NCBI GenBank assembly: GCA_963704705.1
Contig: OY969931.1
Location: forward strand, 1,170,001-1,202,000
Length of the DNA stretch: 32,000 nt
Origin: an uncultured bacterium
GTDB taxonomy: Bacteria > Patescibacteriota > Gracilibacteria > UBA1369 > PNNO01
Reading direction: 5' to 3'
Shown here: in pieces, positions 13,214 to 31,642 of the stretch
Layout of the letters: every line of letters begins with the position of its first letter
Position numbering within the stretch: the first letter of the stretch is position 1
Notes under the pieces: generated by a model
What the model was told of the DNA's origin: nothing
Database searches by the model: none
What the model saw: the letters and a program-made list of their open reading frames with translations, nothing else
Made by a program: the position numbers and the translations under genes

Positions 13214-13314
13214 AAAAATATGTTAAAAATATGCACGCAGCATATCCAAACATTATTAAATATTTCTAAAAAAAACCTAAAATATGCTAAAGTACGCTAA
13301 GTAGGGAGTTAGCG
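13214..13314 (+). other. attI-like region with recombination point G|TTAGCG at 13308|13309
   Basis: Identity with the copy of cassette 1 at 30993 begins exactly at GTTAGCG (13308-13314). Inverted boxes CGCTAA (13295-13300) and TTAGCG (13309-13314) are separated by 8 nt. Upstream direct repeats are AAAATATGTTAAA (13214) and AAAATATGCTAAA (13279), with a palindrome ATATGCacgcaGCATAT at 13229-13245. Confidence 0.7.
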
Positions 13315-13318
13315 GAAA

Positions 13319-13347
13319 TTGGGCTGATTTTAAAAGCGACTTAATAT
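13319..13347 (+). promoter_or_regulatory. cassette-borne promoter candidate (cassette 1; repeated in cassette 28)
   Basis: TTGGGC, 17-nt spacer, TAATAT. It lies inside the cassette, so it travels with it (same sequence at about 31004-31032). Confidence 0.35.
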
Positions 13348-13378
13348 ATAATTCAAATAATTCTTAACCTAAAATTCT

Positions 13379-13957
13379 ATGAATCAAACATGGAAAATCA
13401 TTGTCGCCGTCATTATTACAGCAGTCGTTGTCGGAGGTGGCTTTTACTTCTGGCAACAGAGCAAGGAAGAAACTCCACAAGTTACTCGAAAAACCGAAGA
13501 TCAAACACCAGCTCCAGCAGCTGAAACCGAAAAAACGTTCACTGGTAGCGGATTTACATTCACATACCCCGTAGAATATACAGCTGATAACAAAGGACTT
13601 TGGACAACGGACGGTTATCAAAGACATATAAATCCGCCTGAAGCTTGCGATACCTGCCAGATACCAGAAGTAGAAGTAAAAGCCACCACTTCAAATAAAA
13701 CATTGGATCAACAAATTATTGCTGATTATGACTTGCCAGGAACAACACTGGCAGAGATGTCTAAACAAACTGGCATCAAATATGAGCAAATAAAAATCGG
13801 CGACAATGATTTTATCAAAATCACGGTTAGCGACATGTTCGATGTAACAGGATATTACACAAAACATAATAATCAGATTGTCGCTTTTAAAGTTTATTTG
13901 ACGGAAAAAGATAATAAGGCATTAAAAGATATTATTTCGACTTTGAAGTTTAATTAA
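13379..13957 (+). CDS. cassette 1 (13309-14086): membrane-anchored hypothetical protein (192 aa)
   Basis: N-terminal TM helix IIVAVIITAVVVGGGFYFW followed by a Pro/Thr/Glu-rich linker. The protein is identical to the ORF at 31064-31642. Confidence 0.7.
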   Translation: MNQTWKIIVAVIITAVVVGGGFYFWQQSKEETPQVTRKTEDQTPAPAAETEKTFTGSGFTFTYPVEYTADNKGLWTTDGYQRHINPPEACDTCQIPEVEVKATTSNKTLDQQIIADYDLPGTTLAEMSKQTGIKYEQIKIGDNDFIKITVSDMFDVTGYYTKHNNQIVAFKVYLTEKDNKALKDIISTLKFN

Positions 13958-14463: not shown

Positions 14464-14585
14464 GGCTAACAGGTGTATGTTCAGCTTCACTCGCTATGCT
14501 CGTTACGCCCATATTTTTGCAAGTGATGGCGCTTCGCGCTATTATACCACTTGCAAAAACATAGTACATACACCGGCCGTTGTAC
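14464..14585 (+). repeat. attC 2
   Basis: R'' GGCTAAC, R' GTTGTAC. L arms ggtgtatgt/acatacacc. Inner stem tttttgcaagtg/cacttgcaaaaa. ATTATACCAC core. Confidence 0.85.
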
Positions 14586-14656
14586 GAAATAGCAATGAGT
14601 TCTATCTTTGTGTAAATTTTAAGAAGCACCACTTGACTAATTGGTGATATAGTTGT

Positions 14657-14980
14657 ATGTTATCCCCCATTCATAATCATAAAACTATGAATTTTGGTAG
14701 CTATCGAGCTCGCGTCGCTATAGTAAGAGATATTAGCGAGTTCAAAACAATCAAAGATAGTAATAGAGCAGACAAACTAAATCAAGCTTTAAACAAGGGA
14801 AAAAGCAAAGTTGAACAAGCAAAAACTGATGCAGATATTGAACAAGCATGTAAAGAAACTTTTGAAGAAGTATTAAGAGTTTTTGAAGGTAGTGATGAAC
14901 ATGATGGTATGCGGGGCTTTGTTTTAGTGGATAGATTTCAAAGCGACGCTCACAATTGGTGGAATAATTCAAAGAATTAA
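14657..14980 (+). CDS. cassette 3 (14580-15152): hypothetical protein (107 aa)
   Basis: Intact ORF. A paralog at 29288-29611 differs by one residue (S35R). The true start may be the internal ATG at 14687. Confidence 0.6.
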   Translation: MLSPIHNHKTMNFGSYRARVAIVRDISEFKTIKDSNRADKLNQALNKGKSKVEQAKTDADIEQACKETFEEVLRVFEGSDEHDGMRGFVLVDRFQSDAHNWWNNSKN

Positions 14981-19229: not shown

Positions 19230-19375
19230 GCCTAACAGCAAACTATCCGGTTCAGCCTTTTTTGATGCGCGGCTTTGCACGCGCAAAAGGCTTCACCCAA
19301 CTTTTTTTGCAATGGTGGCGCTGACGCGCTATTATACCATCGCAAAAAAGTTCGTATAGTTTGCGGCCGTTGTGT
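19230..19375 (+). repeat. attC 12 (type B)
   Basis: R'' GCCTAAC, R' GTTGTGT. L arms gcaaactat/atagtttgc. Inner stem ctttttttgcaatgg/ccatcgcaaaaaag. ATTATACCATC core. Confidence 0.85.
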
Positions 19376-19409
19376 GAAATAAATCTGTCGCCACTTAATC
19401 TAAAAATAT

Positions 19410-19850
19410 ATGGCTAAAGAAGACAAAGAACATTGCATATTCTGCAAAATCATCGCCGGCAAATCACCGGTAAGTATAGTATACGAAGATGATAGAGTTA
19501 TAGTATTCCCTCCACTTCAACCAGTAAACAAAGGCCATCTGCTCGTAATTCCTAAAAAACATGCACCTTATTTAGCCGATATTGATGAAGATACAGCTAT
19601 GTACGTCATGAAAATTGCAAAAAAAATTGCAGCAGGAATAAGAAAATCTAAATTTAAAAGTGAAGGAGTGAATCTGTTCCTCGCAGATGGCGAAGCTGCA
19701 CACCAAGAAGTCTTCCATCTACACCTACATGTTTATCCAAGATATGCCGGCGATGATTTTGACTTCAAATATGATTTAGAAAAACACTTTGTTAAAATGC
19801 AACGCTCTGAGTTAGATGAGGTAGCAAAAGAAATAAAAGATCATTTATAA
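19410..19850 (+). CDS. cassette 13 (19370-19991): HIT-family nucleotide hydrolase/transferase
   Basis: 146 aa. CIFCKII N-terminus and histidine triad HLHLHVYP. Confidence 0.9.
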   Translation: MAKEDKEHCIFCKIIAGKSPVSIVYEDDRVIVFPPLQPVNKGHLLVIPKKHAPYLADIDEDTAMYVMKIAKKIAAGIRKSKFKSEGVNLFLADGEAAHQEVFHLHLHVYPRYAGDDFDFKYDLEKHFVKMQRSELDEVAKEIKDHL

Positions 19851-20774: not shown

Positions 20775-20912
20775 GCCTAACACGGCATGTGCGGTTCGGG
20801 CTTCTTTTCGGCTGGCTACGCACAGCCTCAAAGCCCTCACCCATATTTGCCACTGCTACCGCTGCGCGATATTATAGCAGTGGCAAACATCGCACATGCC
20901 GGAACGTTATGT
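20775..20912 (+). repeat. attC 14
   Basis: R'' GCCTAAC, R' GTTATGT. L arms cggcatgtgcg/cgcacatgccg. Inner stem tttgccactgct/agcagtggcaaa. ATTATAGCAG core variant. Confidence 0.85.
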
Positions 20913-20945
20913 GACATCCATTTTTTCTTATTGTAGAATAACGAC

Positions 20946-21514
20946 ATGGAAAAAGAACCAATTACACCGATTGAAATAGTAAAAGCAGATATTAAACTTT
21001 TTGAAAAATATCAAAAAGAAATTTTGGAAATCGAAAGAGAACTTATCGAAAATAGTTCATCAGCATATCTTATTGATGAACAAGATGAGCTCGATTTTAT
21101 GTTAGATGCGTTTAAAAAAGGAGGTTATGCTTATTTAGTAATGGAAAATGAAAAAGTTACTGGGTTTTTAGTTGTTGGGCCACTCGATGATGGGACTGAA
21201 TTGCCTGAAACAGATACTCAAAATTATCCAATTGCAAATTGCCTTCATATCAAAGTAATGTACATAAAAAATACAAGCAAAGGAATTGGTAGTGAAATGA
21301 TGGAAAAATTAATTCAAGAACTAGATAAAGAACAATGGAAATATTTATTTGTAAGAACTTGGATTGATCCACCAAATGAAGGAGCATTAATTTTTATACA
21401 AATCGAGCTGGCTTTGAAGCTGTTCCAAATGCAATAGTTGAATCAACAAAAAGAAAATTGAATGGAAGTGGAACACTCCAAATAAAAAGACAATATTTTT
21501 CAAAAAGGATATAG
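20946..21514 (+). pseudogene. cassette 15 (20907-21678): frameshifted GNAT acetyltransferase
   Basis: Same gene as 30259-30828, but gaaggagcATTAATT replaces gaaggagcTATTAATT (1-nt deletion near 21388). The frame changes just before the AINFYTNRAGF motif and gives a 163-aa truncated product. Confidence 0.8.
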
Positions 21515-23229: not shown

Positions 23230-23343
23230 CACAGAATATGCGGTTTCGCTCCCGTTGGTCGCTACACCCATATTTGCTGGTGGTGGCTCACTTCGTTCGC
23301 TATTATACCACCAGCAAACATCGCATATTCTGGAACGTTGTGT
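23224..23343 (+). repeat. attC 18
   Basis: R'' GCCTAAC, R' GTTGTGT. L arms cagaatatgcg/cgcatattctg. Inner stem tttgctggtgg/ccaccagcaaa. ATTATACCACC core. Confidence 0.85.
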
Positions 23344-23377
23344 GAAATAAATCTGTCGCCACTTAATCTAAAAATAT

Positions 23378-23818
23378 ATGGCTAAAGAAGACAAAGAACA
23401 TTGCATATTCTGCAAAATCATCGCCGGCAAATCACCGGTAAGTATAGTATACGAAGATGATAGAGTTATAGTATTCCCTCCACTTCAACCAGTAAACAAA
23501 GGCCATCTGCTCGTAATTCCTAAAAAACATGCACCTTATTTAGCCGATATTGATGAAGATACAGCTATGTACGTCATGAAAATTGCAAAAAAAATTGCAG
23601 CAGGAATAAGAAAATCTAAATTTAAAAGTGAAGGAGTGAATCTGTTCCTCGCAGATGGCGAAGCTGCACACCAAGAAGTCTTCCATCTACACCTACATGT
23701 TTATCCAAGATATGCCGGCGATGATTTTGACTTCAAATATGATTTAGAAAAACACTTTGTTAAAATGCAACGCTCTGAGTTAGATGAGGTAGCAAAAGAA
23801 ATAAAAGATCATTTATAA
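23378..23818 (+). CDS. cassette 19 (23338-23959): HIT-family hydrolase, duplicate of cassette 13
   Basis: Protein identical to 19410-19850. Both cassettes are 622 bp, and the only difference I saw is one base in the attC (caaCggtgg vs caaTggtgg). Confidence 0.9.
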   Translation: MAKEDKEHCIFCKIIAGKSPVSIVYEDDRVIVFPPLQPVNKGHLLVIPKKHAPYLADIDEDTAMYVMKIAKKIAAGIRKSKFKSEGVNLFLADGEAAHQEVFHLHLHVYPRYAGDDFDFKYDLEKHFVKMQRSELDEVAKEIKDHL

Positions 23819-24405: not shown

Positions 24406-24557
24406 GTACAACAGGCGCATTAACGGTTCGGCTTTTTTTGCGGCTGGCTTCGCACAGCCAAAAATCCCTCACCCAACTTTTTTAACGGTGGTGGCATGTC
24501 TGGCGACATGATATTATACCACCGTCAAAAAGTTCGTTAATGCGCCGGACGTTAGGC
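24406..24557 (+). repeat. attC 20 (type A)
   Basis: R'' GTACAAC, R' GTTAGGC. L arms ggcgcatta/ttaatgcgcc. ATTATACCACC core. Confidence 0.85.
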
Positions 24558-24560
24558 GAC

Positions 24561-24660
24561 ATATTTTTGAAAAATTTGATTTTAAAATGTTTTTGGTGAG
24601 CTTTAAGAAATAAGGAATTTGATTTTTTTAATTTTTAAAGAGGGGGGGGGGTAAAAGGTG
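24561..24660. repeat. IR-L of the RM module (G-rich copy, contains G10 at 24642-24651)
   Basis: tatttttgaaaaattt...gtttttggtgagcttt...gaatttgattttttt...aaagaggggggggggt is an imperfect inverted copy of 27098-27204. The core motif AATTTGATTTTT...AGAGGGG is shared with 27787-27825 and 28571-28625. Confidence 0.7.
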
Positions 24661-24694
24661 TTTTCTCCGCTATCGCTCCAAAAACGAATTTTAA

Positions 24695-24723
24695 TTGGAA
24701 AAAAGCAAAAAGTTTTATATACT
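24695..24723 (+). promoter_or_regulatory. promoter candidate for the RM gene
   Basis: TTGGAA (24695-700), 17-nt spacer, TATACT (24718-23). RBS AAAGAGG lies 5 nt before the ATG at 24755. Confidence 0.45.
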
Positions 24724-24754
24724 TAAATTAGTTTTAACTTATTAAAGAGGTAAT

Positions 24755-27082
24755 ATGGCAAACGAAAGAAAAACCGAAATAATCACAAGAGACCATTTTT
24801 CCAAATTTTTGGATTCTATTTATATTGAAGAACAACGCTCAGATAATCCAAAAATTGATAAGTTGTTAAAATCTGCCTCAAAAAAAGGCGGTGGAAAAGG
24901 TTATCCAGAATTTATCATCAGCTACAAAACTAATCCTGATTTACTGATTGTTATTGAATGTAAAGCAGATGTAACAAAACACGAAAGCAAAGATCACGAT
25001 AAATATTCAGAGTTTGCTGTTGATGGTGCTTTACTTTATGCCTCTTATTTATCAAAGGGCTTTGATGTTTTAGCAATTGCAGTTAGCGGAGAAACAAAGC
25101 AGTCTCTAAAAATTTCTCATTTTTTACATTTGAGAGACGAGAAAAAAGCAACTCCAATTTTTAGCGATAAATTTTTGTCAGTTGACGATTATTTAAACGG
25201 ATATTTGAAAAGCCCTGAAAAATTTAGACAAGATTATAATTCGCTTTTAGATTTCACAAAACAACTTAATGAAAAATTGCATGGTTATAAAATTCTTGAG
25301 AGCCAAAGGAGTTTGCTTATTAGTTCAATTTTAATTGCCTTAGAAAATGTTGCTTTCAAAAGATCATATGCTTCGCACAAAAAAGCTGAAAATCTTGCAG
25401 TTTCTCTAATTCAAACAGTTTCCGATGAATTGGAAAGTGCAAACATCACAGGGAAGAAACTTGAAAACTTGAATACTCAATTCAGCTTTATTAAAACGGA
25501 TACATCTTTATCAAAAAAAGAAAATGTTTTGAAAGAAATTATTGATGAAATTGACGAAAATATAAATGCTTTTATCAAAACTCACAGATATTTTGACGTA
25601 TTGGGACAGCTTTATATTGAATTTTTGAGATACGCAAATAGTGACAAGGGGCTAGGAATTGTTTTAACGCCCCCGCACATCACAGAGCTTTTTGCGGACT
25701 TAGCACAAGTCAATAAAAACTCTATCGCTTATGACAATTGTACGGGAACAGGCGGGTTTTTGATTAGTGCAATGAAAAAAATGATAGCAGACGCAAAAGG
25801 CGATGAATCAAAAATCAAAGAAATAAAATCAAAACAGCTTATCGGAACGGAATATCAATCGCATATTTTTGCTTTGGCGGTTTCAAACATGTACATTCAC
25901 CAAGACGGAAAAACAAATATCATAAATGGCAGTTGTTTTGATGAGGAAATTATTGAAGATGTAAAAACTAAAAAACCAACAGTTGGTTTTTTGAATCCTC
26001 CCTACAAAGACAAAAAGGGAGATACTGAAGAGTTAGAATTCGTGCTTAATAATTTAGAATGTTTAGTTGATGGTGGCGTATGCGTGGCTATAATTCCACT
26101 AAGTTCAGTCATTGCACAAAATGGCATTAAGCTTCAGCTAAAAGAAAAACTACTACAAAATCATACATTAGAAGCCGTCTTGTCAATGCCAGAAGATCTT
26201 TTCCATAATTCAAAAGTTTCGCCTGTTTCTGTCGTTGTTGTCTTTACCGCCCATAAACCACATCCTGTGGGTAAAAAAACATGGTTAGGCTATTTTAGAA
26301 ATGATAATTTTGTAAAAACCAAAGACAAAGGACGTATAGACTTATTGGGAACATGGGAAGAAATAAAAAAAGAATGGCTTACATTATATTTTAATAGAGA
26401 AACAAAAAAAGACATAAGTTTGACGAGAGAATTAAAACCACAAGATGAGTGGTGCATAGAGGCATATTTAACATATGATTATAGTAAAATTACTGAGTAT
26501 AAACTTAAAGATAAAATACAAAAATATTTAGCATTTCGCTTACTTCACGATTTACTTGATTTTAAAATTGATAAACCAAATAAACTTAAAAATGATAACA
26601 AAGTAGTTCCATTGCATGAGATTTTTGATGTAAAAAATGGATTAGCATCTTCAAATGTAGAGGTATTAGAATCTCCTGAAAGTCCTTCTGATATTAGATA
26701 TATTAGACCATCTCAAACTTACGAAGGAAGTATTGCTGGATACGTAGATAAGACATTTATAGACGATAAATACATTTATCCTGACAATACGCTATATGTT
26801 TCTACAGATGGGCAAGGAAGTCATACCTATTCGTATGTTTCATCTTTTGAATTTATCCCAAACAGCAATGTTTCTGTGTTAATGCCTAAAAGAGAAATGT
26901 CCGTACAAGAAAAAATATATTATGCACTTTGCATTTCAAGCAATAGATACAAGTTTTCTTATGGCAGAAAGCCTAAAGGCGATAGATTAAAAGATATATT
27001 TTTACCTTTGTATCCGCCTGAATATGTTCACGGTGATATTTTTAATGAAATCTTTGATAATTGGAAAAAAATAGTAAAATAA
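24755..27082 (+). CDS. cassette 21 (24552-27341): single-chain restriction-modification enzyme (Type IIG-like): N-terminal PD-(D/E)xK-like domain, gamma-class N6-adenine methyltransferase, C-terminal TRD
   Basis: 775 aa. SAM motif I YDNCTGTGGFL and motif IV FLNPPY. The N-terminal NPDLLIVIECKAD resembles the HSDR_N/PD-ExK nuclease motif. The C-terminal 170 or so aa (VPLHEIFDVKNGL...RLKDIFLPL) resemble a single HsdS-type target-recognition domain. The methyltransferase call is strong; the nuclease call is tentative. Confidence 0.75.
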   Translation: MANERKTEIITRDHFSKFLDSIYIEEQRSDNPKIDKLLKSASKKGGGKGYPEFIISYKTNPDLLIVIECKADVTKHESKDHDKYSEFAVDGALLYASYLSKGFDVLAIAVSGETKQSLKISHFLHLRDEKKATPIFSDKFLSVDDYLNGYLKSPEKFRQDYNSLLDFTKQLNEKLHGYKILESQRSLLISSILIALENVAFKRSYASHKKAENLAVSLIQTVSDELESANITGKKLENLNTQFSFIKTDTSLSKKENVLKEIIDEIDENINAFIKTHRYFDVLGQLYIEFLRYANSDKGLGIVLTPPHITELFADLAQVNKNSIAYDNCTGTGGFLISAMKKMIADAKGDESKIKEIKSKQLIGTEYQSHIFALAVSNMYIHQDGKTNIINGSCFDEEIIEDVKTKKPTVGFLNPPYKDKKGDTEELEFVLNNLECLVDGGVCVAIIPLSSVIAQNGIKLQLKEKLLQNHTLEAVLSMPEDLFHNSKVSPVSVVVVFTAHKPHPVGKKTWLGYFRNDNFVKTKDKGRIDLLGTWEEIKKEWLTLYFNRETKKDISLTRELKPQDEWCIEAYLTYDYSKITEYKLKDKIQKYLAFRLLHDLLDFKIDKPNKLKNDNKVVPLHEIFDVKNGLASSNVEVLESPESPSDIRYIRPSQTYEGSIAGYVDKTFIDDKYIYPDNTLYVSTDGQGSHTYSYVSSFEFIPNSNVSVLMPKREMSVQEKIYYALCISSNRYKFSYGRKPKGDRLKDIFLPLYPPEYVHGDIFNEIFDNWKKIVK

Positions 27083-27097
27083 GGAGTTTTGAAAAAT

Positions 27098-27204
27098 GGA
27101 ATTCACCCCCAGCCCCTCTTCCATTTTTCAAAACAAAAAAATCAAATACAATAATAAAAAGCCCACCAAAAACGGAATAATATGGATAAATTTTTCAAAA
27201 ATAC
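27098..27204. repeat. IR-R of the RM module (C-rich copy)
   Basis: The reverse complement reads gtatttttgaaaaattt...gtttttggtgggcttt...gtatttgattttttt...gaagaggggctgggggtgaattcc, matching 24561-24660 block by block. Confidence 0.7.
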
Positions 27205-27249
27205 GCAAGGCACGTTGCACTCTCACTCCGCTATCGCTCCGTTCGGCTC

Positions 27250-27347
27250 GCCTAACACAGTATATGCGGTTCGCTCGTTGCACTTCGCTCTCCCATATTT
27301 TGCTCCGTTTCACTCCGCAAAACATCGCATATACTGAAACGTTGTAG
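27250..27347 (+). repeat. attC 21 (short, 98 bp)
   Basis: R'' GCCTAAC, R' GTTGTAG. L arms cagtatatgcg/cgcatatactg. Short apical stem ttttgc/gcaaaa. It lacks the ATTATACC core. Confidence 0.8.
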
Positions 27348-27394
27348 AAAGCCACTTTTCCTATAAACTAATGATCTAATAATTAACTAATAAA

Positions 27395-27571
27395 ATGATG
27401 CCAAAAATCGAAACTTATTCAGATAATGAAGGAAACTCAATTACTATTGAAGAAGGGCCTGATGGCGTAAATGTTTCTGCAAGCATAAAAACAAAACCAC
27501 CATACTCAGGTGGAGCAAATGCTTCAGCTGCTAGAAGTTACGCTCAAAAAAATGGGCTCAAAAAAGAATAA
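27395..27571 (+). CDS. cassette 22 (27342-27731): small hypothetical protein (58 aa; below the ORF-track cutoff)
   Basis: ATG at 27395 and TAA at 27569-71. It translates as MMPKIETYSDNEGNSITIEEGPDGVNVSASIKTKPPYSGGANASAARSYAQKNGLKKE and is the only plausible ORF in the cassette. Confidence 0.45.
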   Translation: MMPKIETYSDNEGNSITIEEGPDGVNVSASIKTKPPYSGGANASAARSYAQKNGLKKE

Positions 27572-27585
27572 TAAAAGTGGCCATC

Positions 27586-27737
27586 GTACAACAGGCGCAT
27601 TAACGGTTCGGGCTTTTTCTCGCCTGGCTTCGCACAGCCAAAAATCCCTCACCCAAGTTTTTTAACGGTGGTGGCACGTCTGGCGACGTGATATTATACC
27701 ACCGTCAAAAACTTCGCTAATGCGCCGAACGTTATAT
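27586..27737 (+). repeat. attC 22 (type A)
   Basis: R'' GTACAAC, R' GTTATAT. L arms ggcgcatta/taatgcgcc. ATTATACCACC core. Confidence 0.85.
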
Positions 27738-27744
27738 GAAATAC

Positions 27745-27825
27745 ATTTTCCTTCTAAACTGAAAATTGGCTTATTCATAAAGAAAAGAATTTGATTTTTC
27801 TTTTTTTTGATAGAGGGGGGAAATT
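27745..27825. repeat. IR of the HTH module (G-rich copy, at the gene's 3' end)
   Basis: cattttcc...gaatttgatttttcttttttttgatagaggggggaaatt is an imperfect inverted copy of 28571-28666. Confidence 0.6.
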
Positions 27826-28474
27826 ATTGCTCTTCAATCAAACTTTTTAGCTCATCTAATCGATCAACTTCATTAGCCTGAGAGGCAGCATATTCAAGGC
27901 AAGCTACAAATTTGTCCTTACTCATTGGTCCTTTACCACGAATAAAGTTCGAAAGTTGTCCAGCATTAACATTGCATGCAGCTGCTAGTTTTCTAAGGCC
28001 TTGTACAACTCCCATCTTAATAGCTATATGAAGTGCTTTTGCTATAAATTCACGAAATTTATCTTCGCTAGAAAATTCACTATTTTCAATTAATTTAAGA
28101 AAATTAAGCATTCCAGAATATTCTTCTCTTAAAATAATATTCTCAATTTTCGCTGGAATACGTTCATTCAAGTTACGCACAAGCACATCTACATAATTTG
28201 CTAAATTATCCTTGTCCGGATCATTATCAGCAATTTCATGCTGTGCACTGAGAATGTTTCTCACGCCTAAAGCAACTTGCTCAAGCAGAGGTAATAATTG
28301 TGGAAATAGTTTAATAACTTGAGGATTTAAAACCACAACTTCATCGCTTCTTCTTTCAAAAAATTGACTCAAATTTAGATCCCCAATCGTTTGCAATGTT
28401 GGAGCTTCTTTTACTATTCCCTCAGGAGTTTCAGGAAACAAATCTCTTGTATCTAACCCTTTTCCTTTCGCCAT
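27824..28474 (-). CDS. cassette 23 (27732-28787): HTH-domain protein (216 aa), reverse orientation
   Basis: C-terminal XRE/Cro-like helix-turn-helix LRKLAAACNVNAGQLSNFIRGKGPMSKDKF. The N-terminal 150 or so aa are unrecognised. It has its own consensus promoter. Confidence 0.6.
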   Translation of the reverse strand: MAKGKGLDTRDLFPETPEGIVKEAPTLQTIGDLNLSQFFERRSDEVVVLNPQVIKLFPQLLPLLEQVALGVRNILSAQHEIADNDPDKDNLANYVDVLVRNLNERIPAKIENIILREEYSGMLNFLKLIENSEFSSEDKFREFIAKALHIAIKMGVVQGLRKLAAACNVNAGQLSNFIRGKGPMSKDKFVACLEYAASQANEVDRLDELKSLIEEQ

Positions 28475-28502
28475 AACGAAAATATTTTAATAATGGAATA
28501 AT

Positions 28503-28530
28503 ATTATACATAGCAGTTTATTTTTGTCAA
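28503..28530 (-). promoter_or_regulatory. consensus sigma70 promoter for the HTH gene
   Basis: The minus strand reads TTGACA (28530-28525), 16-nt spacer, TATAAT (28508-28503), about 28 nt upstream of the ATG at 28474. Confidence 0.6.
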
Positions 28531-28570
28531 TATACTGTGCAACTTTTATTTCTAAGGTGTTTAGGCTCGG

Positions 28571-28666
28571 CACATTCACCCCCTAGCCCCCTCTGCGCCT
28601 CGCCCAAACAAAAAAATCAAATTCATTCTAATAAAAAACAGGATTTTTCGCGATTTATAAAAATGT
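28571..28666. repeat. IR of the HTH module (C-rich copy, upstream of the promoter)
   Basis: The reverse complement reads catttttataaatcgcgaaaaa...gaatttgatttttttgtttgggcgaggcgcagagggggctagggggtgaatgtg. Confidence 0.6.
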
Positions 28667-28671
28667 TCTTC

Positions 28672-28793
28672 ATATAACAGGTGTATGTTCGGCTACACTC
28701 GCTTAGCTCGTTTCGCCCATATTTTTGCAAGTGGTTCCGCTTCGCGTTATTATACCACTTGCAAAAACATCGTACATACACCGGACGTTAGGC
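28672..28793 (+). repeat. attC 23
   Basis: R'' ATATAAC, R' GTTAGGC. L arms ggtgtatgttcg/cgtacatacacc (1 mismatch). Same subfamily as attC 2. Confidence 0.85.
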
Positions 28794-29210
28794 GCATCTC
28801 TTAATCAATCTATGACGACAACTATATACAAAAATATTGTAAGCATAATTTATTGGACATAGTTCTCACCTTACTTTCAATATCATAAAAATAATGTTAT
28901 GAATTACATGTACTTGAATACAGTAGTTATGAAACACGACCTTCCTGGGGATTCCCTTTGCAGATGTATATGATAATGATGTTAGCTCACCAGTAATGTC
29001 AACGAATGAAAAGATATATTCATTTTTTACAAATGATTGGGGATATATTAATTTATAAATTTTGGCTTCTCAAACCATTTTTAATATTTAAAAAAAGAGA
29101 CACCGCCTAACAGTAAACTATCCGGATTCTCTCCTTCGGCTACACCCAACTTTGCCAGTGGTGGCGCATCGGCTATTAAACAAATGTAAAATCCGTATAG
29201 TTTGCGGACG
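28788..29210 (+). pseudogene. cassette 24: decayed paralog of cassette 16 (membrane protein)
   Basis: Alignable by eye with 21679-22108 along its length, but the start codon is lost (tctATGAcgacaac vs tctattATGaaatta) and there are multiple indels. No ORF of 60 aa or more. Confidence 0.7.
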
Positions 29211-29216
29211 TTGTAC
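29105..29216 (+). repeat. attC 24 (degenerate)
   Basis: R'' GCCTAAC, R' GTTGTAC, and the left arm is intact. The right half of the inner stem (expected attataccactgtcaaagttcg) is replaced by attaaacaaatgtaaaatccg, so the hairpin is disrupted. Confidence 0.6.
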
Positions 29217-29287
29217 GAAATAGCAATGAGTTCTATCTTTGTGTAAATTTTAAGAAGCACCGACTTACTAATTGGTGATATAGTTGT

Positions 29288-29611
29288 ATGTTATCCCCCA
29301 TTCATAATCATAAAACTATGAATTTTGGTAGCTATCGAGCTCGCGTCGCTATAGTAAGAGATATTAGCGAGTTCAAAACAATCAAAGATCGTAATAGAGC
29401 AGACAAACTAAATCAAGCTTTAAACAAGGGAAAAAGCAAAGTTGAACAAGCAAAAACTGATGCAGATATTGAACAAGCATGTAAAGAAACTTTCGAAGAA
29501 GTATTAAGAGTTTTTGAAGGTAGTGATGAACATGATGGTATGCGGGGCTTTGTTTTAGTGGATAGATTTCAAAGCGACGCTCACAATTGGTGGAATAATT
29601 CAAAGAATTAA
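29288..29611 (+). CDS. cassette 25 (29211-29782): hypothetical protein, paralog of cassette 3
   Basis: 107 aa with one substitution relative to 14657-14980. Confidence 0.6.
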   Translation: MLSPIHNHKTMNFGSYRARVAIVRDISEFKTIKDRNRADKLNQALNKGKSKVEQAKTDADIEQACKETFEEVLRVFEGSDEHDGMRGFVLVDRFQSDAHNWWNNSKN

Positions 29612-30082: not shown

Positions 30083-30225
30083 GCATAACAGCGAACTATC
30101 CGGTTCGGGCTTTTTTGATGCGCGGCTTTGCGGGGCAAAAGCCTTCACCCAACTTTTTTTAATGGTGGCGCTGACGCGCTATTATACCACCGTAAAAAAG
30201 TTCGTATAGTTTGCGCCCGTTATGT
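30083..30225 (+). repeat. attC 26 (type B)
   Basis: R'' GCATAAC, R' GTTATGT. L arms gcgaactat/atagtttgc (1 mismatch). ATTATACCACC core. Confidence 0.8.
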
Positions 30226-30258
30226 GACATCCATTTTTTCTCATTGTAGAATAACGAC

Positions 30259-30828
30259 ATGGAAAAAGAACCAATTACACCGATTGAAATAGTAAAAGCA
30301 GATATTAAACTTTTTGAAAAATATCAAAAAGAAATTTTGGAAATCGAAAGAGAACTTATCGAAAATAGTTCATCAGCATATCTTATTGATGAACAAGATG
30401 AGCTCGATTTTATGTTAGATGCGTTTAAAAAAGGAGGTTATGCTTATTTAGTAATGGAAAATGAAAAAGTTACTGGGTTTTTAGTTGTTGGGCCACTCGA
30501 TGATGGGACTGAATTGCCTGAAACAGTTACTCAAAATTATCCAATTGCAAATTGCCTTCATATCAAAGTAATGTACATAAAAAATACAAGCAAAGGAATT
30601 GGTAGTGAAATGATGGAAAAATTAATTCAAGAACTAGATAAAGAACAATGGAAATATTTATTTGTAAGAACTTGGATTGATCCACCAAATGAAGGAGCTA
30701 TTAATTTTTATACAAATCGAGCTGGCTTTGAAGCTGTTCCAAATGCAATAGTTGAATCAACAAAAAGAAAATTGGATGGAAGTGGAACACTCCAAATAAA
30801 AAGACAATATTTTTCAAAAAGGATATAG
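30259..30828 (+). CDS. cassette 27 (30220-30993): GNAT-family N-acetyltransferase (intact copy)
   Basis: 189 aa. The acetyl-CoA pocket pattern is SKGIGSEMMEKLI followed by NEGAINFYTNRAGFE. Confidence 0.8.
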   Translation: MEKEPITPIEIVKADIKLFEKYQKEILEIERELIENSSSAYLIDEQDELDFMLDAFKKGGYAYLVMENEKVTGFLVVGPLDDGTELPETVTQNYPIANCLHIKVMYIKNTSKGIGSEMMEKLIQELDKEQWKYLFVRTWIDPPNEGAINFYTNRAGFEAVPNAIVESTKRKLDGSGTLQIKRQYFSKRI

Positions 30829-30842
30829 AAAAAATGGACATC

Positions 30843-30999
30843 ACATAACAGGCGCATTAACGGTTCGGGTTTTTTTTGTCGGGCGGCCTAAAAGCACGCC
30901 CAAAAATCCCTCACCCAACTTTTTTAACGGTGGTGACATGCCTTGCGGCATGTTATTATGCCACCGTCAAAAAGTTCGCTAATGCGCCGGACGTTAGCG
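30843..30999 (+). repeat. attC 27 (type A)
   Basis: R'' ACATAAC, R' GTTAGCG. L arms ggcgcatta/taatgcgcc. Confidence 0.85.
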
Positions 31000-31063
31000 G
31001 AAATTGGGCTGATTTTAAAAGCGACTTAATATATAATTCAAATAATTCTTAACCTAAAATTCT

Positions 31064-31642
31064 ATGAATCAAACATGGAAAATCATTGTCGCCGTCATTA
31101 TTACAGCAGTCGTTGTCGGAGGTGGCTTTTACTTCTGGCAACAGAGCAAGGAAGAAACTCCACAAGTTACTCGAAAAACCGAAGATCAAACACCAGCTCC
31201 AGCAGCTGAAACCGAAAAAACGTTCACTGGTAGCGGATTTACATTCACATACCCCGTAGAATATACAGCTGATAACAAAGGACTTTGGACAACGGACGGT
31301 TATCAAAGACATATAAATCCGCCTGAAGCTTGCGATACCTGCCAGATACCAGAAGTAGAAGTAAAAGCCACCACTTCAAATAAAACATTGGATCAACAAA
31401 TTATTGCTGATTATGACTTGCCAGGAACAACACTGGCAGAGATGTCTAAACAAACTGGCATCAAATATGAGCAAATAAAAATCGGCGACAATGATTTTAT
31501 CAAAATCACGGTTAGCGACATGTTCGATGTAACAGGATATTACACAAAACATAATAATCAGATTGTCGCTTTTAAAGTTTATTTGACGGAAAAAGATAAT
31601 AAGGCATTAAAAGATATTATTTCGACATTGAAGTTTAATTAA
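31064..31642 (+). CDS. cassette 28 (30994-31769): membrane-anchored hypothetical protein, duplicate of cassette 1
   Basis: 192-aa protein identical to 13379-13957. At the DNA level there is one synonymous change plus changes in the attC. Confidence 0.7.
   Translation: MNQTWKIIVAVIITAVVVGGGFYFWQQSKEETPQVTRKTEDQTPAPAAETEKTFTGSGFTFTYPVEYTADNKGLWTTDGYQRHINPPEACDTCQIPEVEVKATTSNKTLDQQIIADYDLPGTTLAEMSKQTGIKYEQIKIGDNDFIKITVSDMFDVTGYYTKHNNQIVAFKVYLTEKDNKALKDIISTLKFN

Follow-up and report, generated by a model that had tools for sequence, protein, structure and literature searches.

What do inverted repeats of about 100 bp do when they bracket a gene within an integron cassette? This question is raised by a 32,000-nt stretch of DNA from an uncultured bacterium (GenBank assembly GCA_963704705.1, contig OY969931.1, positions 1,170,001–1,202,000)—called the window in the following—which is part of the chromosomal integron of a Peregrinibacteria-like bacterium of the Candidate Phyla Radiation (CPR). 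Within its cassette array, cassette 21 carries a restriction-modification (RM) gene and cassette 23 a gene for a 216-aa protein, and both genes are enclosed by such repeats, next to the recombination site attC of their cassette. A sequence-only reading of the window had left three options for them: (a) a mobile or invertible module bounded by terminal inverted repeats (TIRs) and nested inside ordinary cassettes, (b) arms that come to lie on either side of attC once the cassette is circular and single-stranded, lengthening its hairpin, or (c) bidirectional insulators. We consider the second option the best reading and a reasonably probable one: the repeats would be the arms of a cassette frame that acts in cis and lengthens the stem of attC. 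This reading is supported by folding, by a complementarity that is held in 11 families, and by arms that are more conserved than the cargo between them.

The inverted repeats themselves were recovered at the positions noted before. In cassette 21, the left arm (L1) and the right arm (R1) match in the pairs 24562–24577/27188–27203 (16 nt, 100%), 24589–24604/27158–27173 (94%), and 24617–24651/27113–27147 (74%); the arms L2 and R2 of cassette 23 match in 27784–27805/28606–28627 (86%) and 27731–27749/28660–28678 (89%). Their similarity goes beyond low-complexity matching, as Smith–Waterman alignments compared with 500 shuffles yield z=14.0 for L1 with the reverse complement of R1, z=12.9 between the reverse complements of R1 and R2, and z=8.4 for L1 with L2. 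A 15-nt core, GAATTTGATTTTTTT (at most two mismatches), occurs four times in the 32 kb, solely at the four repeat sites. Nevertheless, the four copies are not equivalent, as had been assumed, but belong to two distinct types. L1 and L2 lie at the 5′ ends of their cassettes and carry a single G-run on the plus strand—ATTTGATTTTT, about 9 nt, and one AGAGGGG(G) run. R1 and R2 adjoin attC; read on the minus strand, they show ATTTGATTTTT, 15 nt, and then AGAGGGGCT(A)GGGGGTGAAT, which on the plus strand forms the loop of a perfect hairpin, TTCACCCCC(T)AGCCCC(C)TCT (also written TTCACCCC..CCCCTCT).

Pairs of arms from the same position in the cassette score 43 (L1/L2) and 53 (R1/R2), whereas scores of 31 and 28 result if the arms are grouped by where they lie with respect to the gene. 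Hence, the arm type tracks the cassette and its attC, and in cassette 23 it is not the frame that is inverted but only the gene with its promoter. The orientation of the modules had been described as uncoupled from that of attC; on the contrary, the arms are coupled to attC in both cassettes, and the gene of cassette 23 is simply a rare cargo that was loaded backwards with its own promoter into a frame that itself stands upright.

That no other cassette has these repeats holds inside the window but not outside of it, where hundreds of related cassettes exist. Two patterns for the R-arm motif were scanned: the R-hairpin plus A-run matched at least 120 metagenome contigs, most of which come from groundwater, sludge, and lake samples, and GGAGTTTT-stem-loop matched at least 120 genome contigs; together, these are at least 240 contigs, mostly metagenome-assembled genomes (MAGs) of CPR bacteria. 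The genome matches listed cover many CPR classes, including a complete Wolfebacteria genome, and also MAGs labeled Gammaproteobacteria, Bdellovibrionales, Omnitrophota, Cloacimonadota, and Bacteroidota, as well as archaeal genomes, with a single-cell Nanoarchaeota genome among them. A search of 2.9 million viral contigs gave no match to the motif. Throughout more than 190 related cassettes (loci are given as L numbers below), the position of an R-type arm is invariably beside attC, and that of an L-type arm invariably begins at the R′ crossover. A strict attC detector—a crude one, whose counts are lower bounds—places an attC after 34 of 71 and 44 of 89 hairpins, compared with 0 of 77 and 1 of 103 controls, and by eye an attC follows most of the printed R arms, including many that the detector missed. 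Most of the contigs inspected in detail have the motif in the context of an attC; where they deviate, we saw a small number of deletion derivatives or truncated remnants, along with L202, which is unexplained. As far as the searched literature shows, framed cassettes appear to form a large and previously unnoticed family: a search that most subscription journals lay outside of yielded no account of arms like these and practically nothing about integrons in CPR bacteria.

As a side observation, MAGs or single-cell genomes labeled Pacearchaeota, Nanoarchaeota, and Methanosarcinales, as well as MAGs of several non-CPR bacterial phyla, also contain the hairpin (L211, L214, L151, and others); DPANN archaea are thus among the labels of the MAGs concerned. 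These non-CPR and archaeal occurrences reflect either a wide horizontal spread or binning contamination.

The framed cassettes share a common anatomy. On the plus strand, the 3′ half consists of a stop codon within TAAGGAG, a stem of 13–17 bp, the loop TTCACCCCTnACCCCTCT, the return stem, CAAAAC, an A-run, and 70–130 nt of AT-rich DNA up to the R″ box of the own attC. The 5′ half starts with R′ and GAAAT, followed by 70–90 nt of AT-rich DNA, the motif TTTAT(A)AGAGGGG(N2-4)AAGGTG, the L-hairpin, CGATTT, and the cargo. Counted from the R′ crossover, the AT-rich L arm comprises about 90–130 nt, and its inner motif AGAGGGG..AAGGTG, which precedes the L-hairpin, is kept in that position in the L arms inspected from several families. 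In a family alignment, the R-hairpin shows compensatory changes at 11 of 13 pairs around an invariant loop—for the type found in cassette 23, the stem substitutions of L257 are compensatory as well. The stems of the L-hairpin likewise covary between families, as in CTGCCC..GGGCAG and TTTTTTGC..GCAAAAAA. An open reading frame (ORF) of at least 80 codons in the same orientation precedes 187 of 193 unique R-hairpins (97%); it ends exactly at the TAA of the element in 79 of these 187 cases (42%) and 1–30 nt upstream of it in 74, of which 25 end 3 nt before. The remaining six hairpins (3%) lack a co-oriented ORF and represent reversed cargo. Both window cassettes depart from the norm of a promoterless co-oriented ORF: they bear promoter-like sites in front of their genes, and the cargo of cassette 23 is reversed.

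Conserved hairpins after stop codons, and cargo enclosed by two hairpins in direct orientation, are also known from repetitive extragenic palindromic (REP) sequences, bacterial interspersed mosaic elements (BIMEs), and the subterminal hairpins of elements derived from IS200/IS605. Unlike these, the hairpin described here comes as one copy per cassette that is tied to attC, has an invariant loop with covarying stems, and is not associated with a RAYT or TnpA gene. At several loci, a second, tandem hairpin is found about 70 nt upstream of the R-hairpin, with the loop TTCCCTCCCCTTAAACCCCTTCC and again two CCCCT repeats (L034 at 7209, L050 at 10219, L097 at 6263, L111, L120, L132, L147, L186, L199, L220, L224, L234, and L249).

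This anatomy bears directly on option (a), the TIR-bounded transposable or invertible module. Inverted repeats do bracket self-promoted genes, and the two genes lie on opposite strands. Units around integron genes that are bounded by TIRs or by miniature inverted-repeat transposable elements (MITEs), such as integron mobilization units and composite elements, similarly have inverted repeats of about 100 bp around a gene. Here, though, there are two arm types that are fixed to attC and the crossover: with the L arm beginning directly at the R′ crossover and the R arm reaching up to R″, no host cassette sequence is left outside. A target-site duplication is missing, with the flanks TTAGGCGACA and CGCAAGGCAC being unrelated; the module contains no transposase or invertase gene, and no invertase gene lies beside it. 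Furthermore, all copies (L008–L013, L012, L114, L256, and L257) show a single orientation, and the 97:3 bias in cargo orientation contrasts with the roughly 50:50 expected for an invertible segment. Nor was the motif seen independently in the contigs inspected—away from attC, it is confined to the few deletion derivatives or remnants and L202 mentioned above, and the viral contigs have none. We hence reject this option as extremely improbable.

The main support for a stem extension comes from the arms themselves. Where enough sequence precedes the hairpin, the R arm in most cases matches, as its reverse complement, a partner 650–4500 nt upstream that starts at the R′ core. A complementary L arm is found upstream in 71 of 132 unique cases (54%; at least 2.5 kb of upstream sequence), each scoring above every control. 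Sorted by L arm, the 80 unique pairs form 11 families, in which the mean L/R score is 69.5 for cognate arms and 22.3—the background level—between families. Homologues of the 216-aa protein (L256 and L257; 44–50% protein identity) have retained the two arms and the hairpin along with the promoter and the reversal of the cargo. On the nucleotide level, their arms are 82–93% identical and their coding sequences 69–77%; as the arms are more conserved than the coding sequence, they are under constraint. The complementarity does not end with the arms but passes without a break into the R′ and R″ boxes of attC.

In folding predictions for the bottom strands of the circularized cassettes 21 and 23—read as R arm, attC, and L arm—the arms stack on the attC stem and form a stem of about 100 bp that is capped by attC, at −73 and −62 kcal/mol, respectively (z about −8). 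The same is predicted in situ where two family-B cassettes adjoin each other: the junction at L063 folds into the L-hairpin, a stem of about 100 bp tipped by attC, and the R-hairpin at −85.7 kcal/mol (z −12.7). At two other junctions, L035 (about 1150–1330) and L217 (about 385–560), the outer arms and attC are deleted, the R-hairpin and inner R arm abut the inner L arm and L-hairpin, and the two cassettes are fused. Central deletion is the typical fate of long palindromes that form hairpins in vivo, and the loss of the central palindrome at L035 and L217 is what would be expected if such hairpins form here. Fused cassettes that join two cargos after loss of an attC are known otherwise, too; in contrast to ordinary ones, the deletion at L035 and L217 takes the whole palindrome—outer arms and attC—and leaves an R-hairpin beside an L-hairpin.

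How far this departs from a canonical attC (59-base elements, Vibrio cholerae repeats) can be seen from the extent of pairing. The sites share the imperfect palindrome with R″/L″...L′/R′ boxes (RYYYAAC...GTTRRRY), the crossover at G↓TT, the completion of the site by the first bases of the linear cassette, and arrays beside a tyrosine recombinase. In described attC sites, pairing stops at the R boxes, and the sites measure about 57–141 nt. Here, the complementarity runs 75–120 nt past the R boxes on both sides and ends in the conserved inner hairpins, resulting in a palindrome of 350–450 nt that takes in DNA which is normally cassette specific.

attC recombines as folded single-stranded DNA of the bottom strand, and its folding—as well as the simultaneous folding of both sites—is limiting (PMC5371416). 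Pairing of the arms would hence be expected to help recombination, with the long stem as a cis-acting aid to the integron integrase IntI. Once the cassette is excised and circular, its L arm and R arm would zip together; likewise, arms could pair in single-stranded DNA of the array and between neighboring cassettes of the same family. This pairing would carry the attC stem outward by about 75–120 bp. In the circular cassette, the long stem might drive or hold the correct folding of attC and thereby favor insertion. Instead or in addition, it might loop out the cargo within the array and set the two flanking attC hairpins base to base, which would favor excision.

Several points weigh against the stem extension as a full explanation. 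About 46% of the R arms are found without a cognate L arm—46 of 132 without any L arm, and a few cassettes with mismatched arms—so that a full stem is not obligatory. Among the 80 arm pairs, G·T mismatches are about as frequent as A·C mismatches (119 versus 123), a balance that favors neither strand for the fold and neither DNA nor RNA. In mixed arrays such as that of the window, the arms do not flank attC in situ, and long palindromes usually harm genome maintenance (PMC5371416). We infer the role in recombination from structure alone, and stem extension by itself leaves the invariant C-rich loop and its placement at the stop codon unaccounted for.

In the linear array—the usual state of a cassette—it is the ORF and not attC that the arms bracket. 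This allows for a reading on the RNA level, in which the arms pair around each ORF in read-through transcripts and give rise to RNase III-type processing or to a stabilizing or insulating structure, while the stop-codon hairpin would protect the 3′ end; it is effectively a version of option (c). The prevailing co-orientation of the cargo (97%), the R-hairpin abutting the stop codon, and the short distance by which the L-hairpin precedes the start codon in several framed cassettes agree with it. So does the purine load of the arm mismatches on the sense strand, which are A·A in 273 cases versus T·T in 67, and A·G or G·A in 207 versus T·C or C·T in 58; this excess may reflect purine loading of the transcribed strand. 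Processing stems of rRNA precursors with their RNase III sites offer a precedent, as they are complementary flanks that bracket a unit, loop it out, and covary. Yet, in the framed cassettes, the arms follow attC and not the gene wherever the two disagree, and they are conserved at 82–93% in the very family with reversed cargo. Both window cassettes have their own promoter inside the arms, and the resulting transcript lacks one of them. Moreover, mismatches compatible with G·U pairing are not in excess on the sense strand, the complementarity continues into the R′ and R″ boxes, no terminator-like site is present at the arms, and an Rfam scan of the region returned a single match at chance level (E 0.18). 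We therefore hold an action of the arms as RNA to be quite unlikely, and the terminator scans lend no support to bidirectional insulators as initially suggested.

Two further candidates were tried and rejected. The hairpins do not qualify as intrinsic terminators, as the scan was negative at the arms, and both inner hairpins have a T-run on the 5′ side and an A-run on the 3′ side that extend the stem. Mini-ORFs (TAAGGAG with a downstream ATG, ORF 27096–27347; small ORFs in the L arm) are not convincing as peptides, since their starts and frames are not conserved among copies.

If the frame is a property of the cassette, how firmly is it linked to its cargo? Homologues of the RM protein number in the thousands, most of them from CPR MAGs, and the RM cargo is found in quite different surroundings. 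At L008–L010 and L012—the last being another integron—cassette 21 is present as a whole, including its two arms and its attC, with about 96% identity. At L014, only the part corresponding to window positions 24648–27084 (L-hairpin, promoter, and gene) is present, and both arms are absent; this RM block is flanked by direct copies of a 27-nt hairpin, GTTTTCTCCGCTA(T)CGCTCCGAAAAC. At L005–L007, the gene lies behind a different L arm, and the R arm is absent. Finally, at L003 (Parcubacteria GW2011_GWC2_39_14, LBWI01000018.1, 5001–7560), the gene is joined at TAAGGA to a decayed R-hairpin and a family-B R arm, with an attC truncated to its 5′ two-thirds, in an ordinary chromosomal neighborhood. 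Taking L003 as a native, non-integron context with the hairpin as the 3′ flank of the gene itself was considered and dropped, as the alignment shows a fossil cassette. Across these frames, the RM cargo retains 92–96% amino acid identity, and its promoter region moves along with it (L005 and L014). Conversely, the family-A frame carries unrelated cargos at L033, L096, L109, L117, and L131; between frames with different cargos, homology stops just past the L-hairpin and returns at (A)ATAAGGAG. Finding the same cargo in different frames and the same frame with different cargos implies that cargo and frame are separable modules, with breakpoints at the two inner hairpins. A module nested in a cassette is thus a fitting description insofar as cargo swaps between frames, but its borders are the inner hairpins rather than the outer ends of the repeats.

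Two side observations concern these loci. At L014 (2294–6010), a single cassette contains two cargo modules in tandem, one for the RM gene and the other for a 255-aa gene that has a promoter of its own; both modules start with an L-type hairpin. At L003, a Peptidase_S24 (LexA-like) gene is located 58 nt upstream.

Such exchange might also be understood as a trace of how cassettes are made. The frame would then be a scar or chassis of cassette genesis, in which cargo is joined to a pre-existing palindromic unit composed of R-hairpin, R arm, attC, L arm, and L-hairpin. In a variant of this, joining occurs by homologous recombination within the conserved inner hairpin motifs. In either version, the complementarity would reflect the common origin of the arms, with no function of its own. 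The constant homology borders of one frame with different cargos fit this idea, as does one RM cargo in frame A, beside a family-B R arm, without arms, or without an R arm, and so does the way in which ORFs are hugged from both sides—ending at the TAA of the element in 42% and, in several cassettes, starting with an ATG a few tens of nucleotides past the L-hairpin. On the other side, the arms exceed the coding cargo in conservation across deep divergence, and complementarity held in eleven families argues for selection on pairing and not for a decaying scar. No empty frame, i.e., an L arm joined straight to an R arm, was seen among the framed cassettes examined, the smallest cargo being about 700 nt, and no solo unit outside arrays was recognized among a dozen single-copy loci examined; to our knowledge, no enzyme for loading cargo has been described, which counts against this reading as well. 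Taken together, we judge an origin as scar or chassis to be unlikely.

A more far-reaching form of this idea, which we put forward with considerable doubt, is that the frame marks cassette construction: a self-complementary attC carrier, into which ORFs are loaded between hairpin "punctuation" sites, with the conserved loop possibly serving recognition or synapsis. The 3′ junction would be set at the stop codon, and the conserved loop, which reads GGGGTnAGGGG on the recombining bottom strand, might be bound by the short IntI or another factor. Should this hold true, the origin of integron cassettes would become directly testable in one cassette family.

The positions of all elements within the window are collected in Table 1.

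Table 1. Elements of the framed cassettes 21 and 23 and associated features in the window
Feature	Position	Strand	Characteristics
Short IntI-like tyrosine recombinase, 273 aa	12392..13213	−	Pfam Phage_integrase; array head
Cassette 21	24552..27341	+	Begins with TT of the R′ before it, ends with G in its own R′; defined by R′ junctions
L arm, cassette 21	24552..24638	+	AT-rich, family A; three blocks pairing with the R arm
L-arm inner motif, cassette 21	24639..24660	+	AGAGGGGGGGGGG-TAAAAGGTG, variable G-run
L-hairpin, cassette 21	24660..24685	+	GTTTTC-TCCGCTATCGCTCC-AAAAAC; loop is 15-mer copy 1
Promoter-like site of RM cargo	24695..24723	+	TTGGAA-17-TATACT, 9/12
Type IIG restriction-modification gene, 775 aa (cargo)	24755..27082	+	Pfam N6_Mtase; PADLOC
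R-hairpin, cassette 21	27080..27134	+	TAAGGAG; 16-bp stem 27086–27101/27119–27134; loop TTCACCCCCAGCCCCTC
R arm, cassette 21	27135..27204	+	A-run, then AT-rich stretch complementary to the L arm
GC-rich insert between R arm and R″	27205..27249	+	Carries 15-mer copy 2 (27226–27240)
attC, cassette 21	27250..27347	+	R″ GCCTAAC ... R′ GTTGTAG; folds as hairpin
Cassette 22	27342–27731		Between both framed cassettes; without arms
Cassette 23	27732..28787	+	Defined by R′ junctions; L002 and L256/L257 contigs about cassette-sized
L arm, cassette 23	27732..27820	+	Finishes in ATAGAGGGGGG; overlaps 3′ flank of the reversed gene
216-aa cargo gene, reverse orientation	27824..28474	−	XRE-like helix-turn-helix (HTH) at C-terminus
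Consensus sigma-70-type promoter of 216-aa gene	28530–28503	−	TTGACA-16-TATAAT, 12/12
R-hairpin, cassette 23	28543..28599	+	TAAGGTG, stem, loop TTCACCCCCTAGCCCCCTCT (28565–28584), stem
R arm, cassette 23	28600..28671	+	82–83% identity to L256/L257
attC, cassette 23	28672..28793	+	R″ ATATAAC ... R′ GTTAGGC; folds as hairpin

The borders of cassette 21 are backed by its relatives, as the homology of L008 and L009 begins precisely at G↓TTAGGC, i.e., at the cassette junction. More generally, copies of one cassette diverge after ACG↓TT, which places the crossover at G↓TT of R′. Assignment of its gene as RM was borne out by PADLOC, which matches the protein to REase_MTase_IIG (E 4.5e-162) and to Specificity_II; its stop codon is the TAA of the R-hairpin, whose stem is 100% complementary. 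For cassette 23, the L arm shares 84–91% nucleotide identity with those of L256 and L257, which also retain the −35 element TTGACA (TTGACT in L257) and a −10 element TATGAT. The 216-aa protein had been called an HTH protein. It has no Pfam or NCBIfam match, and only its confidently modeled C-terminal third resembles XRE-type HTH proteins, with modest support. Of the sigma70 promoters noted in front of both genes, that of the 216-aa gene has the full consensus, and the RM gene has a promoter-like site.

The G-run of the L arm in cassette 21 (24641–24650) counts 10 nt, compared with 9 nt in L001 from the same strain and 6–8 nt in other copies. This slippage-prone run sits about 45 nt upstream of the RM promoter. 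Window and L001 also differ by A/G at 24680, which closes or opens one base pair of the L-hairpin.

The sequence-only reading had further pointed out a 15-bp direct repeat, and the 15-mer CTCCGCTATCGCTCC is present at 24665 and 27226. Its first copy is the loop of the L-hairpin, a component that every frame conserves. The second copy belongs to the GC-rich insert of about 45 nt, which bulges from the predicted stem. Presence of this insert varies among otherwise similar arms, and so does that of related inserts of about 56–60 nt in family C (for example, L025 versus L029). It includes ACGTTGCAC, which resembles an R′ junction; the insert might be what is left of a second attC or of a tiny cassette that was empty. 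Cassette 22 encodes a 58-aa ORF (27395–27571) that has no family match, and its attC shares 90% identity with the one in front of cassette 21.

The contig that the window was taken from measures 1.37 Mb. Housekeeping genes fill the first 12,000 nt of the window, V-type ATPase subunits among them, and subunit B groups with proteins named Candidatus Peregrinibacteria or Patescibacteria. The cassette array extends from about 13310 to the end of the window and comprises about 20 attC sites, each finishing in CGGACGTTRRRY. Cassettes are duplicated within it at 98–100% identity (13308–13607 and 30993–31292; 19368–19667 and 23336–23635; 20905–21204 and 30218–30517; with 14574–14873 being similar to 29205–29504), which suggests recent duplication or re-insertion.

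Divergent from the array and adjoining it lies the gene of the tyrosine recombinase, as in an integron platform. This 273-aa protein matches the integron integrase profiles TIGR02249 and PRK15417 in two pieces that skip profile positions of about 184–250; it scores 185 bits against TIGR02249, whose cut-off is 265, and equally well against the archaeal XerA profile XerA_Arch. Profile comparison hence does not find the IntI-specific additional domain around patch III in this recombinase. Homologues of about 270 aa with the same short form are encoded beside framed cassettes in about 29 of the fetched loci; the integrase of L012 (7117–7929) has 270 aa.

Arrays with an integrase as short as this may be overlooked by tools that depend on the IntI-specific domain. 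A study of the aquifer defensome, for example, retained only "complete" integrons of IntegronFinder, a filter that would probably exclude arrays carrying it. CPR integrons may hence be under-counted.

For the cassettes themselves, attC is usually treated as a self-contained site of 60–140 nt, whereas here selection appears to keep about 100 nt of additional pairing on each side together with two conserved hairpins as borders of the cargo. Should folding or synapsis be controlled by the arms, these cassettes would encode the tuning of their own mobility. In addition, the exact junctions between cargo and frame, along with the exchange of cargo between frames, provide a handle on the question of how integron cassettes are assembled.

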